A model generated the notes under the pieces. The model worked only from the letters and a program-made list of their open reading frames with translations, did no database searches and was not told the origin of the DNA. From IMG/VR virus record IMGVR_UViG_3300026521_000463, positions 1 to 64,000 of that record: DNA of 64,000 bases. One strand, written 5' to 3'. This document shows, in pieces, positions 6,702 through 30,894 of this stretch. Each line of letters starts with the position of its first letter. Within the stretch, counting starts at the first letter, position 1. The translations under genes were made by a program, and so were the position numbers. This DNA is from a virus.

Positions 6702-7289
6702 TTAATCCCTTAAAAAATTATGAAGTCTTAACATTGGTGGATTATAAAGATTGTCTCTATCATAAGCATCTAATTGAATTAAATCTTTTTCAATGTCTTT
6801 AAGTGTTAAAGGATGTAACGATATGTATCTAACTTCACTTTGCCAAGACATACAACTTCTCTCAAAAGTTTTAAAAGAAAATATAAATACTAATTCGTCT
6901 CTTTTAATATCCATAAATGCTGTTCTTCCGTCAGGAACTAATTTATCTGTAATAATGAAAATATACTTAAAAAATATAACCTTTTTAATTGTTTTTTTAT
7001 TTTTAGAATAAATATCATTAAAAAAATCTTCAAAGTCATTTTTTAAAAAAGTAATAAATTCATTTTCATTATCAAAAAACATTCTTATTTCTCTTTTTGT
7101 GAAGAGTTTAAATGCATTATTTTTTAAACCTTTTCTTATTCTCTTAGCATAACTTTTTAGGTTGAAATTTTTCTTTTCAATTTCATCTAACACCAAATCA
7201 AAAACTACTCTGTCAAATTCCCCGTCAAGCAATTTATAAATCAACCTGTGTGAAGTTGATTGCTTTAATTCTCTTAAACTTATTTTCAT
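6702..7289 (-). CDS. hypothetical protein
   Basis: starts at AAGGAATTCACATG RBS variant. Confidence 0.7.
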   Translation of the reverse strand: MKISLRELKQSTSHRLIYKLLDGEFDRVVFDLVLDEIEKKNFNLKSYAKRIRKGLKNNAFKLFTKREIRMFFDNENEFITFLKNDFEDFFNDIYSKNKKTIKKVIFFKYIFIITDKLVPDGRTAFMDIKRDELVFIFSFKTFERSCMSWQSEVRYISLHPLTLKDIEKDLIQLDAYDRDNLYNPPMLRLHNFLRD

Positions 7290-23599: not shown

Positions 23600-23800
23600 T
23601 TATCTGTAGATTTTTATTCCGTAGTAGTGTTTTGAAGTAGTATTTATCTCACTTCCTATAAATTTACCACTTCCAACAGATTGTGGAGTGAAGTGAAAAC
23701 AAGTTTTAGCAGTTGAACCTTCAAGGAGAAGTCTTGAATTATCACAATAAAGTCTTTCTGAAGCAGACAAAAAAGTAAAAAGAAATAAAATTAAAACCAC
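23600..23800 (-). CDS. small exported protein
   Basis: signal-peptide-like N-terminus, Cys pair. Confidence 0.5.
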   Translation of the reverse strand: MVLILFLFTFLSASERLYCDNSRLLLEGSTAKTCFHFTPQSVGSGKFIGSEINTTSKHYYGIKIYR

Positions 23801-24318
23801 GATGAATTCCCATTATCTGAATCATCAGAGCCAGAAGTATCTTTTTTTCTTATTAAAATGTATATATTACTTTTTTCTTTTATCATTTTCTTATTTTCAA
23901 CTGCTTCCAATTGAATTATGAAACCTCTATTTTGTCCTGTGTTACCATCCGATTTTATTTCAATATCAAGTGTCGCACCTGTATCACCTGATTTTATAGT
24001 AATGTTTTTATCTAACTTTGTATAGTCAATTCCGTCTTCAGCAGATAAAGAAAATGTTTTACAATTTATAGTAATATCATCTGGCAACTTTTTTGAGATG
24101 TTTATGTCTATTGTTATATTTGTATCTTCGTCAGGGGTGTCCGTTTTGACTTGACTTGCAATGATTGAAGAACGGTCAGTAGAAATGAAGTATGAAGTCA
24201 TCGTGCCTGGTATTTCAAGATTCCCTTTATCATCAAGGTTGAGGGTGGTATAACCATCATACTCAACCCTGTATCCAAACAATAAAGTAAAATGAAGTAT
24301 AAGATATAAAAATTTCAT
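23791..24318 (-). CDS. exported Calx-beta-domain protein
   Basis: signal peptide; SAEDGIDY...ITIKSGDTGATLDIEIKSD...FIIQL matches Calx-beta. Confidence 0.7.
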   Translation of the reverse strand: MKFLYLILHFTLLFGYRVEYDGYTTLNLDDKGNLEIPGTMTSYFISTDRSSIIASQVKTDTPDEDTNITIDINISKKLPDDITINCKTFSLSAEDGIDYTKLDKNITIKSGDTGATLDIEIKSDGNTGQNRGFIIQLEAVENKKMIKEKSNIYILIRKKDTSGSDDSDNGNSSWF

Positions 24319-24320
24319 TT

Positions 24321-24776
24321 TTACTCCTTTGTCAAATAATGTTCTTTATAGTAATTAACAATTTTTGAAAAAATTGCCATATTAGGTGTATATCTATCAT
24401 TTTGTAATATAGAACAATTTTTAATAAATTCCTCCATTTTACAATTTGATTTTTCTATACACTTGATATAAGTTATTGCCATTGCTACAGCAGCACTTCT
24501 GCTCTCTCCTGCATCACAATGGATTATAAGATTATCTTTTTTTGAAAATTCTATAATTTTTTTAATAGTTATATCATCAATATCATCTTGGAAATATATT
24601 TTTATATAACTATTAAATTTTTTATAATCTTCATCTGTAATTAAATCATCGTCTGAAATTGAAATAAGATTATATTTAGATGTATCTTTACCAAAAATAA
24701 GTAAAGACATAACTTCAAATTTTGAAATTATTGCTATTATATATTCATTAGATGAAGTATTAAAAAGTTTTAGCAT
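24321..24776 (-). CDS. protein-tyrosine/dual-specificity phosphatase-like protein
   Basis: IHCDAGESRSAA (CX5R), PN motif. Confidence 0.88.
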   Translation of the reverse strand: MLKLFNTSSNEYIIAIISKFEVMSLLIFGKDTSKYNLISISDDDLITDEDYKKFNSYIKIYFQDDIDDITIKKIIEFSKKDNLIIHCDAGESRSAAVAMAITYIKCIEKSNCKMEEFIKNCSILQNDRYTPNMAIFSKIVNYYKEHYLTKE

Positions 24777-24802: not shown

Positions 24803-25381
24803 TTAACCCTTCCCTATTTTATACTTCTTTTTTTCATTTATACAAATAATCCCATCAATAGGAATATCTATATCAACTTTATAATAAGTATTTTTCCCTT
24901 TTAAGTTGTAATCACTTTTGATTTTTATTTGTGGATAAGTGTCATTCTCTATTCCTAATTCTTTTAATAAATTATCAAAAATTACCTTTGCCCCGTCTAT
25001 TGAATTGTCGTCAATGGTATTATCAGGTTTAGGTGTTCCTGCAAGCATATAATCCATCATAGCATTCATCAATTCTATTGAAACTAAAATTTCTACTTTT
25101 TTTATTTTTAGAGCATAATAGCAATTATATTTATGAATTTTTTCATCAATTCTATAATAATTTATATCTCCTGCTCCACACATATTTTTAAAAATATCAT
25201 ATAATCTTCTAATGATATTATGAGGTGTTAAAAGTGTTTTCTCTTTTTTTGCTTTCAAATCATCTTCTTCAACTACTTCTAAAAGTGCATTTATTTCCTC
25301 ATCTGAAAGGATTCTTTTAGATAAATCTTTTGGTATAGTGTAATCTGTCTCGTCAAAATGCTCATTAAAATAATCTACCAT
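24803..25381 (-). CDS. FliM/FliY-like protein (CheY-binding peptide + CheC-like segment)
   Basis: ILSDEEINALLEVVEED resembles FliM ILSQEEIDALLEVV; NAMMDYMLAG resembles the D.MLGG motif. Confidence 0.6.
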   Translation of the reverse strand: MVDYFNEHFDETDYTIPKDLSKRILSDEEINALLEVVEEDDLKAKKEKTLLTPHNIIRRLYDIFKNMCGAGDINYYRIDEKIHKYNCYYALKIKKVEILVSIELMNAMMDYMLAGTPKPDNTIDDNSIDGAKVIFDNLLKELGIENDTYPQIKIKSDYNLKGKNTYYKVDIDIPIDGIICINEKKKYKIGKG

Positions 25382-25698
25382 TTTATACCTTTAATTAAGT
25401 TTTCTCTAAACTTATATTTTATTTCATCTTTTCTTCTGTGATGTTTATTTTTGCCTTCAAGTTTTTGAACTTTTATCATTCTATTATATTCAATTTTTGA
25501 TTGCCCTATATTAAGTAACTTCCAAACTTCGTATCTCGTCATTACAGATTTTTTCAAGTTTCTTCTATAACTCCTAAAAGAGTGTAAATCATCAAAAAAT
25601 GATGATTTAGAAATCCTTAGAACTGATAAATTTCTCCACTCTTTAAAATTCCATTCTAGAAAACTCATTTTATTTCTCGTCATAAATTGAAGTGTCAA
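25375..25698 (-). CDS. basic hypothetical protein
   Basis: ORF track. Confidence 0.55.
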   Translation of the reverse strand: MTLQFMTRNKMSFLEWNFKEWRNLSVLRISKSSFFDDLHSFRSYRRNLKKSVMTRYEVWKLLNIGQSKIEYNRMIKVQKLEGKNKHHRRKDEIKYKFRENLIKGIKW

Positions 25699-26368
25699 TC
25701 ACATCTTCAACTTTTATTTCTTCATCTGTGTGATAGAATTCCCATTCAATTCTTTCATTTTCAAGTAATTCAAAATAAACAGAATTGAAGTCATCTTTGC
25801 AGCAATGTATGCTGTTATGTGATAAACCTCTGCTAAAATCGTGATAAACTTTTATTTTATCAATTAAAATATGCTTTTTGATAACTTCAAGGATATTAAC
25901 ACTTGCCTTGGTATCTCCGCTTATTAAAAAGTTACCAAAAAATGAATATAACCCATAACAATTAAAAGGACCGTGATTGACTCCAATAGCAGTCATTCTC
26001 AACTCTGTTTCATTCATTGTCTTAAACTCAACCATCTCAACAGGAACATTCTGCCCATTCACATAAATTGAATTAAATTTACCTTTAAAAATATCTTTTA
26101 ATTCTTCAATAACTTTACTTCCAGAGATTACAATTGTTTTTAAACCTCTAACAAAATATCTGAAATAGATAAGTCTTTCAAGGTCTGAGATGTGGTCTAA
26201 ATGGGTATGACTTATGAAAATATAATCTATATCTTCATCTTTAACCTTTTGAAAAATGCCGTGCCCGCAATCAAATAAGATAGTTTCACGACCTTCAATT
26301 AAAAAAGCACTTGACACTTCACTAAAAGCACCACCATTTCCTAATTTTGTTATTTTAGTTTTCATCAT
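25670..26368 (-). CDS. metallo-beta-lactamase-fold hydrolase (RNase Z-like)
   Basis: LGNGGAF, FDCG, SHTHLDH, H, SGDT motifs. Confidence 0.88.
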   Translation of the reverse strand: MMKTKITKLGNGGAFSEVSSAFLIEGRETILFDCGHGIFQKVKDEDIDYIFISHTHLDHISDLERLIYFRYFVRGLKTIVISGSKVIEELKDIFKGKFNSIYVNGQNVPVEMVEFKTMNETELRMTAIGVNHGPFNCYGLYSFFGNFLISGDTKASVNILEVIKKHILIDKIKVYHDFSRGLSHNSIHCCKDDFNSVYFELLENERIEWEFYHTDEEIKVEDVIDTSIYDEK

Positions 26369-26605: not shown

Positions 26606-28438
26606 TTAAGAAACAAGTTCTAAAAGTAATCCCATCTCTGGGTTTCTTAAATCTAAGATTCTTGTTTCTTCATCTTTCTCAATTTCTTCAAGTTCTAAAT
26701 CGTTGATATATAAGTAAGAGTTAAGTTGTCTTCTTAACATATCTTCAATTCCTGACGGGTCTCTGTCTGAAACTTGCCCTGCTTTGTTACTTGCTAAGAA
26801 ATAAAATGTATCATTATCAATAACCCCAATAGTTTCTTCTCTATCTTTAGGTTTAATATATGTCTCGAATATAATTTGACTTTTTTCTAACATTCTATTT
26901 TCAGCAACATATTCAGCATCACCTATGAAAAATTTATAATTTAATTCAGGGTGTGTTCCCGTGAATAGGTTTACCTTAACATTATACAGGTTTTTTGTAT
27001 TGAATTTTAACAATTCAGTTGCTCCATTTGGTCTTGGAGCATCTGTAATATCACCTGAATAAACCACACTATCACTTGCCCAATCTCTATTCCATCCAAT
27101 TTTAGCAACACTATTTGTAGCACTTAAATCTAAATCCACTCTATTTCTATGCGATTCTTCATCAAGGTCAAGGTTATACCAATGAATACCAACCACAGGA
27201 TTATTTACGATTTTAACTTTACTTCCAAAAGGAAAATTACCTACGAACTTTTTACCACTCTCAGGAAATGCTACTTTGATATTATCTTCAAGTCCTATTA
27301 TTTTGATATTGCTTTCTTTTAGTTTTTTATTTAACTTTTTAGAAAGTCTTTTAATAATAACTTTTCTAACCATTTCAAGATATTTATTGCTTACTTTTTT
27401 GTCATAAGTGTCTATAAATGTTTTGCCATTTCTCACTTGATATTGGATTAAATCACCTTTATCTGTTAAAAGTCTTGTATTTACTGCTCTATAAAGTTTT
27501 AAAATATAACTAATGTCCATATCTTTGATAATTGACTTGATTTCATTTTTTGAAAATTCTTTAGATGTAACCATTAAGTAATCTGCTGTTTTTACAGGTT
27601 TATGATGTTTTTTAGACATTCTTGAAATTTTGTTTATAATACTTCTATTATTTGGATTTTTCATCATTACAAAAATTTCTTTATATCTATTGAAAATCTC
27701 AGCAAAAGGTTTATATCCATATAATTCAATGTGATTTTTTAGGTCTTCTGTCAAGTCATATCTCGCAACTAACTCTTGGAATGCTCTATTTTTAACAAAT
27801 GGGATATGATATCTGTTAGCAATCATTCTAAAAAAATCTTCACCTTTTGCAGGAACTTTTGCTATATCTAATACAGAAATTTTTAAGTCTTTATTTCCTA
27901 TATTCCATTTTTGGATAGTATTATATTTTTCTTTAATACTTCCTTCAAGTTTTTCAGATAAAATTTCAGAAATTTCATATACTAAATCACTATCTAATGC
28001 GATATTTTGAGTAATAACTTGGAATAATTTTTCAAAAAATTCATCCTCACTCATCACATCAATTGTTTTAACTTCATATCCATCTAAGAATTCTACTACA
28101 CTCTCATCAAAATCTGTAGGTCTTGCACCTGTTAAGTAGTGAAAAATTTGATAAAAAATTCTTGTCCCTTCAACTTCACTTCTAATAACTTCATCCCATC
28201 TTTTGAAGAATGTTTCTCCTAATTCATTGTTTGAAATGTTATACATTGAAACTACATCAACTGCCGTATTTAAGCATTTGTTACTCATTTCTGAAAAATC
28301 AAAATAAACACCTTTAGCAAATAAATCCATAGCATATCTATTTAGTGTTCTTTCTTCTAAGTCATTTGTTCCACTATCTTTAACAACACTATTAAATAAT
28401 CTCATCGCCACTTTTTGTTTTAATAAGCAATTTTTCAT
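26606..28438 (-). CDS. large protein with C-terminal TerD-like domain
   Basis: VDLDLSA...IGW...YSGDITDAP..GATE. Confidence 0.65.
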   Translation of the reverse strand: MKNCLLKQKVAMRLFNSVVKDSGTNDLEERTLNRYAMDLFAKGVYFDFSEMSNKCLNTAVDVVSMYNISNNELGETFFKRWDEVIRSEVEGTRIFYQIFHYLTGARPTDFDESVVEFLDGYEVKTIDVMSEDEFFEKLFQVITQNIALDSDLVYEISEILSEKLEGSIKEKYNTIQKWNIGNKDLKISVLDIAKVPAKGEDFFRMIANRYHIPFVKNRAFQELVARYDLTEDLKNHIELYGYKPFAEIFNRYKEIFVMMKNPNNRSIINKISRMSKKHHKPVKTADYLMVTSKEFSKNEIKSIIKDMDISYILKLYRAVNTRLLTDKGDLIQYQVRNGKTFIDTYDKKVSNKYLEMVRKVIIKRLSKKLNKKLKESNIKIIGLEDNIKVAFPESGKKFVGNFPFGSKVKIVNNPVVGIHWYNLDLDEESHRNRVDLDLSATNSVAKIGWNRDWASDSVVYSGDITDAPRPNGATELLKFNTKNLYNVKVNLFTGTHPELNYKFFIGDAEYVAENRMLEKSQIIFETYIKPKDREETIGVIDNDTFYFLASNKAGQVSDRDPSGIEDMLRRQLNSYLYINDLELEEIEKDEETRILDLRNPEMGLLLELVS

Positions 28439-29910: not shown

Positions 29911-30894
29911 TTAAAAAATATATTCTATTTCATAAACACTATCATCTTCACCTAATAGTGGTAATTCAAATCCTCTTCCCATATCACTCCAAAGATAAAA
30001 TAAATTTTTATCTCCTCTTTTTTTGTTTCTTTTTTCTAATTCATCTAATCCAATAAGTGAGACATACATTTTTGTATTAAAATTCTTATTGAAAAATTTT
30101 CTTCTGCTTTTTATAGACATATTTGTTCTATCAACCACAAAATCTTTTCTTGCTTTTAGTAATTTCCCTTTTTTAACTTCAAAAAGTTTATCTATCTCTT
30201 TATGGTCTTCTTTAGATAACTTTTTCCAAATCTCATTATAATCCGTTTCATTGAATTTATCTTTTCCGTATTCAAGTAAAATATCATCTCTACTTAACAC
30301 ATGAAGTCCGTTGAGATTTTCTTTTATATAAGTTGATTTACCACAACCTGGTAACCCTATAAATAAATGGATTGTAGGTTTATTAGGGTCTTTTTTAGGC
30401 ATTTCAATCTTTTCTAATTCAACTTTTACATCCCTTCCTTCTTGGTCTTCAAAACATATATTTCCTGCAGTGTCATATTTTCTGAACTCATATAAATTTT
30501 TTAAAAGTTTAAGATTATGTTTAAAGTATTGTCTTATTTGTCTTTCACTTTTTTGCCATAATGCTCCGTGATAATTTATAGTATAAAGGATATCTATATC
30601 CTCAACACTCAAATAACCTTTATCACCCATTAAGTAATCAATTGCTATTAAAGTTGAAAAATGCTCGTGTCCTGTATATAATACTCTTCCATTTTCATTT
30701 ATAAATTTTGAAACAGGTTTTCCTAAGTCGTGTAATAAAGCAACTTTTTTCATAAATTCACTTTTTGCTTGACTAAAAACCATACAAGTATGACTCCAAG
30801 TGTCATCCTCAAGATGATATGTCTCACTTGGCACAATTGTATTTTTTAAAACATTCATATAATCTTTTTTAACTTTTAAAAATAATTCTTTCAT
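29911..30894 (-). CDS. HD-domain + polynucleotide-kinase-like (AAA_33) fusion
   Basis: YHLE, HT, LLHDLGK, GHE; GLPGCGKST, SRDD, DRTN....R. Confidence 0.88.
   Translation of the reverse strand: MKELFLKVKKDYMNVLKNTIVPSETYHLEDDTWSHTCMVFSQAKSEFMKKVALLHDLGKPVSKFINENGRVLYTGHEHFSTLIAIDYLMGDKGYLSVEDIDILYTINYHGALWQKSERQIRQYFKHNLKLLKNLYEFRKYDTAGNICFEDQEGRDVKVELEKIEMPKKDPNKPTIHLFIGLPGCGKSTYIKENLNGLHVLSRDDILLEYGKDKFNETDYNEIWKKLSKEDHKEIDKLFEVKKGKLLKARKDFVVDRTNMSIKSRRKFFNKNFNTKMYVSLIGLDELEKRNKKRGDKNLFYLWSDMGRGFELPLLGEDDSVYEIEYIF

Follow-up and report, generated by a model that had tools for sequence, protein, structure and literature searches.

A phage protein that joins a FliM-type N-terminal peptide to a CheC-like domain, a candidate decoy for phosphorylated CheY

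Why would a virus carry the part of a flagellar switch protein on which the chemotaxis regulator CheY docks? The question is raised by a gene in the 64,000-nucleotide (nt) stretch of DNA analysed here (the window), which makes up the first 64 kb of a viral contig of 93 kb, from an uncultured T4-like phage and with a completeness estimate of 42% (IMG/VR record IMGVR_UViG_3300026521_000463). The gene, at 24803..25381 on the minus strand (stop codon included), encodes P0001, a protein of 192 amino acids (aa), as the list of open reading frames (ORFs) and the translation both confirm. An earlier note, made from the letters of the window, had taken it for a captured and trimmed switch protein that titrates phosphorylated CheY (CheY-P) or poisons the C ring, and so alters the motor bias of infected cells or blocks superinfection. 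The observation behind that note was confirmed, and its interpretation is supported in the structural part and plausible in the functional part. The build of P0001 appears to be that of a flagellar switch protein without its last third, with a host-matched FliM peptide, a short flexible linker and a small domain of the predicted CheC/CheX/FliM fold. We give an even chance to the proposal that it acts in host takeover as a soluble trap for CheY-P, uncoupling chemotaxis from the motor.

The FliM peptide and the phage family that carries it

Residues 24-40 of P0001 read ILSDEEINALLEVVEED; the earlier note had placed this string at about residues 23-39, and the two further strings that it quoted were found at residues 98-115 (ILVSIELMNAMMDYMLAG) and 128-142 (IDGAKVIFDNLLKEL). 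Fifteen of the 17 positions are identical to residues 4-20 of Campylobacterota FliM, and the chance expectation for a match of at least 15 out of 17, over all six frames and with the amino-acid composition of the window, is about 6e-12. The LSQxEIDALL-type peptide found at the N-terminus of FliM is represented in P0001 by ILSDEEINALL, followed by the extension EVVEED. It is established that CheY docks on this N-terminal EIDAL motif of FliM (PMC6946799; PMC7355467), where phosphorylation gives a 20-fold gain in affinity and a tether-to-second-site model has been described (PMC7355467).

The distribution of the peptide among prokaryotes was determined by scanning one genome per species, from 185,579 species, with the pattern [ED]I[ND]ALLEVV, which returned at least 120 loci. 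Among the matches listed, 83 were residues 1-17 (MA[DE]ILSQ[ED]EIDALLEVV, then three acidic residues) of ORFs of about 355 aa in Campylobacter, Helicobacter, Sulfurospirillum, Arcobacter, Wolinella and Nautiliales, which bears out the earlier statement that FliM of this phylum continues with LLEVV. Two of these ORFs were tested with Pfam and both proved to be FliM (PF02154 at 1e-75, plus PF01052). The other translated matches listed lay inside unrelated proteins, out of the ILS..E context, and none was in an ORF of FliY size (about 280 aa). The extension of LLEVV by acidic residues ((D/E)3), common to the phage peptide, was almost confined to Campylobacterota FliM among the matches listed. When the phage family was aligned with 12 host FliMs by hhalign, exactly the peptide segment was aligned (21 columns, 71% identity, P = 1.2e-5). 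A search of the PDB with the 36-residue N-terminal fragment of P0001 gave spurious matches only (CagY repeats). Many viral contigs of low guanine-plus-cytosine (GC) content (L128-L144, for example L129 and L130) encode a protein of about 170-190 aa with an internal ADINALLEVVEP; as it stands outside the ILS..E context, it looks like a chance match of nine residues, and illustrates the specificity of the longer match.

The coding layout was as follows. The N-terminal leader (residues 1-23; 25313..25381, minus strand) is predicted to be disordered, with a predicted local distance difference test score (pLDDT) below 50, and is not conserved among the relatives, in which the peptide begins at about residue 9-13 and not at 24 as in P0001. 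An AAGG lies 8 nt 5' of the ATG, and there is no alternative in-frame start between residue 1 and the peptide. The peptide mimic and its conserved acidic tail DLK, delimited by the FliM match, the hhalign result and the conservation, occupy residues 24-43 (25253..25312, minus strand), and are followed by a Lys-rich flexible linker (residues 44-49; 25235..25252, minus strand) that varies in length and sequence among the relatives. The pLDDT was below 50 for residues 34-47.

Homologues of P0001 are few. Among 1.84 billion representative proteins, searched exhaustively with HMMER, only two other clusters were recovered, a word-index search recovered one homologue cluster, and scans of viral and metagenome contigs yielded five distinct long forms of 176-192 aa, from two sister metagenome samples and the contig of the window. 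The long forms sit in syntenic phage neighbourhoods, and homologues were found only in related vent phage contigs. Conservation within the family is highest in the peptide: all five long forms share ALLEVV.EDDLK without change, in agreement with the interpretation of the earlier note, and the proteins are otherwise 43-48% identical to P0001. Among them, the 'SQEE' that lies upstream in FliM is preserved less well.

These data bear on the explanation that the similarity is a coincidence or a relic and that P0001 serves some phage function with no link to chemotaxis. The 9-mer [ED]I[ND]ALLEVV does arise by chance in unrelated bacterial and viral proteins, but such matches comprise the 9-mer only, without the ILS..E context, and the low expectation given above refers to the 17-mer. 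Moreover, the peptide is the best kept part of the family, is attached to a fold that is specific to proteins of chemotaxis and the switch, and recurs at the N-terminus of unrelated phage proteins (see below). We therefore regard this explanation as very improbable.

The CheC-like body and the motifs that it lacks

The body of P0001 (residues 50-186; 24824..25234, minus strand) matched nothing in Pfam and PHROGs, in the PDB (phmmer and profile searches) or in a tblastn search of 50,697 phage records. PF02154 was not matched by the four phage members even at E <= 10, and the same threshold gave no match of the phage members to PF13690 (CheX) or PF04509 (CheC). The hhalign comparisons of the body with the middle domains of 12 host FliMs (P = 0.43 local, 0.87 global) and with Campylobacterota CheX (P = 0.27) were not significant.

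Structure prediction gave a different picture. AlphaFold2, run on a four-sequence alignment, folded the body with a pLDDT of about 80 into an alpha/beta domain of the topology a-b-b-b-a / a-b-b-b. In a Foldseek search of the PDB with this model, the top 36 matches all belonged to the CheC-like superfamily (E from 3e-6 to 7e-3), and the next match had an E above 0.1. The top set included FliM in cryo-electron microscopy structures of the C ring, CheX, FliY, the middle domain of Helicobacter pylori FliM, and CheC, in agreement with the structural match to FliM/CheC-family folds that the earlier note had anticipated. One candidate explanation was that the peptide had cued AlphaFold into a FliM-like fold. 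This was rejected, because a peptide-less paralogue of P0001, folded as a control, adopted the same fold with higher confidence (pLDDT 80.3, four of the five models near 79-80). The fold call is thus independent of the peptide, and the predicted CheC-like fold of the body, shared by the FliM middle domain and by CheC, CheX and FliY, appears robust. The ESM Atlas model was poor (pLDDT 0.44), and its top neighbour, a Campylobacterota FliN/FliY cluster with a TM-score of 0.35, was too weak to use. The viral structure library BFVD gave no match at E <= 0.001, which is not evidence that viruses lack the fold.

FliM, CheX and FliY tie as structural matches (ties in Z), so that the body is not assignable to one branch of the superfamily. 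Likewise, the non-significant alignments with FliM and CheX do not single out fliM, fliY or cheX as the ancestor. Of the phrase 'captured, trimmed switch protein', the layout of FliM and FliY without SpoA was upheld; an origin from FliM is no more than a possibility, given P = 0.43 and a structure that is as near to CheX and FliY.

The motifs absent from P0001 distinguish it from each of these relatives. FliM and FliY are anchored to the C ring by their SpoA domain, and the GGXG motif binds FliG. The earlier statements that P0001 lacks a SpoA/FliN domain and has no flagellar neighbours agree with the scans: PF01052 gave no match, only six residues of the protein follow the final strand of the CheC-like domain, and no flagellar genes were found around 24803-25381. 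GGXG was not found in any of the four phage members by a regular-expression scan. The three host FliMs scanned have it at position 134, and G134, G135 and G137 do not vary among the 12 host FliMs of the alignment. The 'D.(M/L)LGG' motif proposed earlier has a resemblance in P0001 (MDYMLAG), but the relatives have MMIDEED or a similar sequence instead, and GGxG occurs in none of them. In summary of the likeness to FliM and FliY, the order of CheY-binding peptide, linker and CheC-like domain is common to all three; P0001 differs from FliM in being phage-encoded and in lacking a Pfam FliM match, GGXG, SpoA/FliN and flagellar genes nearby.

The absence of GGXG also weighs on a second explanation, in which the CheC-like domain docks on FliG or between FliM middle domains and caps or distorts the ring, the peptide being secondary. 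Poisoning of the C ring, as suggested in the earlier note, or of FliG gained no specific support, because the GG motif is not conserved in the relatives. In addition, the body has no similarity in sequence that could be detected to the middle domain of FliM and is about 50 residues shorter (about 135 against about 185 aa), and its near full-length structural alignment is with CheX, which is not a ring component. We consider it rather unlikely that P0001 acts as such a C-ring binder.

The active-site consensus of CheC, CheX and FliY is D/S-x3-E-x2-N-x21-P (PMC12887009). This motif was absent from all four phage members in a motif scan, which detected it, as a positive control, in five stand-alone CheX proteins and two longer CheX-domain ORFs of five Campylobacterota genomes. 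These genomes (G001-G005; L165, L166, L168, L169 and L170), which include Nautiliales metagenome-assembled genomes from vents, each have several CheX-family genes; the stand-alone CheX proteins, of 130-157 aa, carry the complete D/S-x3-E-x2-N..P, and the FliY of about 284 aa does not. In the phage proteins, the equivalent is likely [DE]-x3-[DE]-x2-[K/R/G] (D125, D129 and K132 in P0001), in which the acidic pair would be kept and the water-positioning Asn lost, a mapping that is based on motif scans, the position on the long helix of the second half and a non-significant alignment, and not on a residue-level superposition. The lack of SpoA, GGXG and the catalytic motif indicates that P0001 is not a true FliM and is probably not an active phosphatase. 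It differs from CheX, a stand-alone CheY-P phosphatase of about 150 aa, in lacking the catalytic Asn and the downstream Pro and in carrying a FliM-type peptide, which CheX does not have, and there was no profile similarity to Campylobacterota CheX. From FliY of the Bacillus/Thermotoga type (EIDAL peptide, CheC-like phosphatase and SpoA) it differs in the absence of SpoA and of D/S-x3-E-x2-N. The FliY of Campylobacterota is inactive and lacks the active sites (PMC6946799), and P0001 resembles it in this respect.

FliY of Bacillus uses its peptide to bring CheY-P to a CheC-family domain, which speeds dephosphorylation, and P0001 could conceivably do the same with a non-canonical active site. However, besides the missing consensus, which is present in host CheX, the position expected for the catalytic Asn is occupied by K, R or G, the glutamate of ELMN is replaced by Ala in one member, and the ELMN motif is located on a different helix. 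We judge a phosphatase of this type to be quite improbable.

Recurrence of the peptide and its probable target

The FliM peptide is not limited to the P0001 family. When 2.9 million viral contigs were scanned for ILSQxEIDALL, small ORFs came to light that start with the peptide and have bodies unrelated to P0001 and, as far as checked, to each other. One group is PHROG 8774, proteins of 121-128 aa starting with MA.ILSQEEIDALL, which occur in 29 GenBank records, including the Campylobacter phages CP220, CP21, CPt10, NCTC12673, PC14 and CP81, and are annotated as 'hypothetical'. The CP220 member is CPT_0071 (GenBank FN667788.1, 65899-66264), and further loci were found on viral contigs at L146:1404-1766 (+), L148:2538-2900 (-), L149:3153-3536 (-), L152:577-960 (-) and L154:1240-1617 (+). 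In the Campylobacter phages, the 11-residue core ILSQEEIDALL is identical to the core of Campylobacter FliM. PHROG 8774 and P0001 are alike in being small phage proteins with the host FliM peptide, and the phages that carry PHROG 8774 are distant T4-like relatives of the phage of the window; the PHROG 8774 proteins differ in the unrelated body, in the position of the peptide at the extreme N-terminus and in the lack of the LLEVV extension. P0001 had no match at E <= 0.1 in PHROGs, including the body of PHROG 8774 (about 128 residues), and only the peptide is common to the two.

Three other proteins begin with the peptide: a Cys-rich protein of 152 aa starting with MRDILSQDEIDALLNG, found on two contigs with 51-52% GC (L147:4460-4915 (+), the same as L151:7990-8445 (-)); a protein of 168 aa starting with MASILSQSEIDALLDAVDEPE, on a 146-kb contig with 33% GC (L150:5728-6231 (-)); and, from a further scan, a protein of 130 aa starting with MSDGSLSQDEIDALLAG, on a contig with 36% GC (L178, around 7071-7099, minus strand). 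The 152-aa and 168-aa proteins had no Pfam family, or only a peptide-level PHROG match. The recurrence on unrelated scaffolds is the strongest indirect argument that the peptide itself is a functional module. It is possible, with somewhat less than an even chance, that the FliM peptide of flagellated hosts has been captured or evolved by their phages repeatedly, on different bodies (at least five unrelated small-protein families, including PHROG 8774) as a general strategy to intercept CheY-P or FlhG and control motility or polar organisation. The vent version would then have gone furthest, joining the peptide to a catalytically inert CheX/FliM-like domain as a bivalent CheY-P trap, and with it the CheC-like fold family would gain its first member from a virus.

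The N-terminal peptide of FliM has CheY-P as its universal ligand and, to our knowledge, the characterised members of the CheC-like fold nearly all contact CheY-P. On these two grounds, and on that of the laboratory constructs described below, we favor CheY-P as the target. The peptide of P0001 would capture CheY-P in competition with motor-bound FliM, and the CheC-like domain, in keeping with the other members of its fold, may provide a second, weaker contact. In the absence of SpoA and of the FliG-binding GGXG, P0001 should stay soluble, and with the catalytic Asn of CheX and CheC missing, the captured CheY-P would be held and not hydrolysed. The expected outcome in infected Campylobacterota cells would be a motor locked in its default direction and a loss of chemotactic switching. 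Soluble N-terminal fragments of FliM reportedly bias Escherichia coli motors counter-clockwise by binding CheY-P (Mathews, Tang and Blair, 1998, J Bacteriol 180:5580) and would thus be a laboratory precedent for a decoy, although these were over-expressed, artificial constructs, in contrast to the natural viral gene described here. The phage may benefit from dispersal of infected cells, from energy saving or from altered rotation-dependent adsorption of other phages, all of which are possibilities; titration of CheY-P, altered bias and the blocking of superinfection, as the earlier note had it, are likewise effects that P0001 might have. A complex prediction with full-length P0001 and a Nautiliales CheY (L123:240-614) gave a score of 0.00, which, being without controls, counts neither for nor against binding.

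Several points weigh against the CheY-P trap. First, the peptide alone does not identify the target, because the MinD-like ATPase FlhG also binds the N-terminus of FliM in polar flagellates, using it to contact FliM/FliN (PMC12826062) and to deliver them to nascent C rings. P0001 could thus hijack FlhG, with the result that new flagellar assembly is stopped or division is disturbed. Campylobacter FlhG governs flagellar number and blocks polar cell division, and C. jejuni, which has no Min system, controls its division site through FlhG and the C ring (PMC6946799). The acidic LLEVV extension is kept in host FliM and the phage proteins alike, which is consistent with this explanation. On the other hand, no stable contact between FlhG and any of the C-ring proteins was detected in C. 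jejuni (PMC6946799), and the attached CheC-like fold is an interaction fold for CheY-P or FliG, without a known link to FlhG. We consider FlhG an unlikely target, though one with a tangible chance. Second, the 'QEE' of FliM is replaced in four of the five long forms (for example SKDIVNALL), so that strict conservation is limited to the hydrophobic I/V-x-A-L-L face and the LLEVV tail. Third, the peptide is internal in P0001 (residue 24), as opposed to its extreme N-terminal position in FliM. Fourth, the peptide-less paralogue, a 136-aa protein of the P0004 type that consists of the body alone, is encoded by a related phage at L122:14037-14447 (+), 3.5 kb from the long form of the same contig, which implies that the domain has a function of its own outside the decoy model; no such second copy was found in the contig of the window, for which the whole record was searched. 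Fifth, the loss of the catalytic Asn to K, R or G is deduced from motif scans and helix position. Finally, Campylobacterota is a host phylum that we infer from the peptide and the habitat, together with the GC content and the distant phage relatives. The interactions with CheY-P, FlhG, the C ring and, as a phosphatase, with CheY-P are not mutually exclusive.

In the literature searched, we found no description of phage proteins linked to FliM, CheY or EIDAL, and none of a phage protein acting on the step of signalling from chemotaxis to the motor; the homologous PHROG 8774 genes of well-studied Campylobacter phages carry only the 'hypothetical' annotation mentioned above. If the CheY-P trap is correct, viruses steer bacterial swimming from within the cell through mimicry of a docking peptide of 17 residues, a branch of the CheC-like fold that is neither catalytic nor part of the ring exists in viruses, and P0001 is a natural, host-matched inhibitor of CheY-P (or FlhG) with potential as a research tool. 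Because C. jejuni phages available in culture, such as CP220 and NCTC12673, have the same peptide, the idea is directly testable with existing strains and by standard assays.

Genomic setting

The window has a GC content of about 25% throughout, and nearly all of its genes are on the minus strand. Its replication and repair genes are of the T4 type, with a gp41-like helicase, gp46/47-like SbcCD, topoisomerase II subunits, a DNA ligase and a glucosyltransferase. In these core proteins the nearest cultured phages, at an identity of only 32-42%, are Vibrio phage Va1 and, among the Campylobacter T4-like phages, the CP220/CP21 and NCTC12673 groups. DNA of the window is present in hydrothermal-vent metagenomes of several studies. 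This setting, with its T4-like replication genes, low GC content, vent origin and Campylobacter phages among the nearest cultured relatives, fits a takeover protein. A search of 401 Campylobacterota genomes for DNA matches, such as possible CRISPR spacers, gave short AT-rich chance matches only, and no tRNA was found in a tRNA search, so that there was no tRNA clue to the host. A 325-nt contig of a biofilm metatranscriptome is identical to 25256-25580, which takes in the 5' end of the P0001 gene, with the codons of the peptide, as well as the upstream ORF; it demonstrates presence in an RNA library and is not proof of transcription.

The upstream ORF (25375..25698, minus strand), of 107 aa and with no Pfam or PHROG match, has a stop that overlaps the start of the P0001 gene, and translational coupling of the two is possible. 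The overlapping pair is also found in L122 (9709-10005 and 9992-10570). Two genes upstream of P0001, at 25670-26368 (minus strand), is a metallo-beta-lactamase-fold hydrolase of 232 aa (PF00753, 2e-9; PHROG 392), which is absent from the syntenic position of L122. Directly downstream, within 23600-24776 and all on the minus strand, are a CX5R dual-specificity-phosphatase-like protein of 151 aa (PF00782, 9e-7, just under the cut-off), a signal-peptide protein of 175 aa with a Calx-beta domain (7e-6) and an ORF of 66 aa. This trio also follows the homologue in L122, together with an extra inserted exported protein of 121 aa.

Farther upstream, also on the minus strand, are a protein of 610 aa without a family match (26606-28438) and a polynucleotide-kinase-like protein of 327 aa with an HD domain and a P-loop kinase (29911-30894; PHROG 6931, 6e-57), both of which are conserved and syntenic in L122. 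Among the other viral contigs scanned, three with 52-53% GC (L177, L184 and L188) encode a protein of 476 aa in which FSQEEIDALLGEG is internal, about 150 residues into the open frame, and not N-terminal. The IMG sample number of the contig that encodes the 168-aa protein (L150) is close to that of the sample from which relatives of P0001 were obtained.
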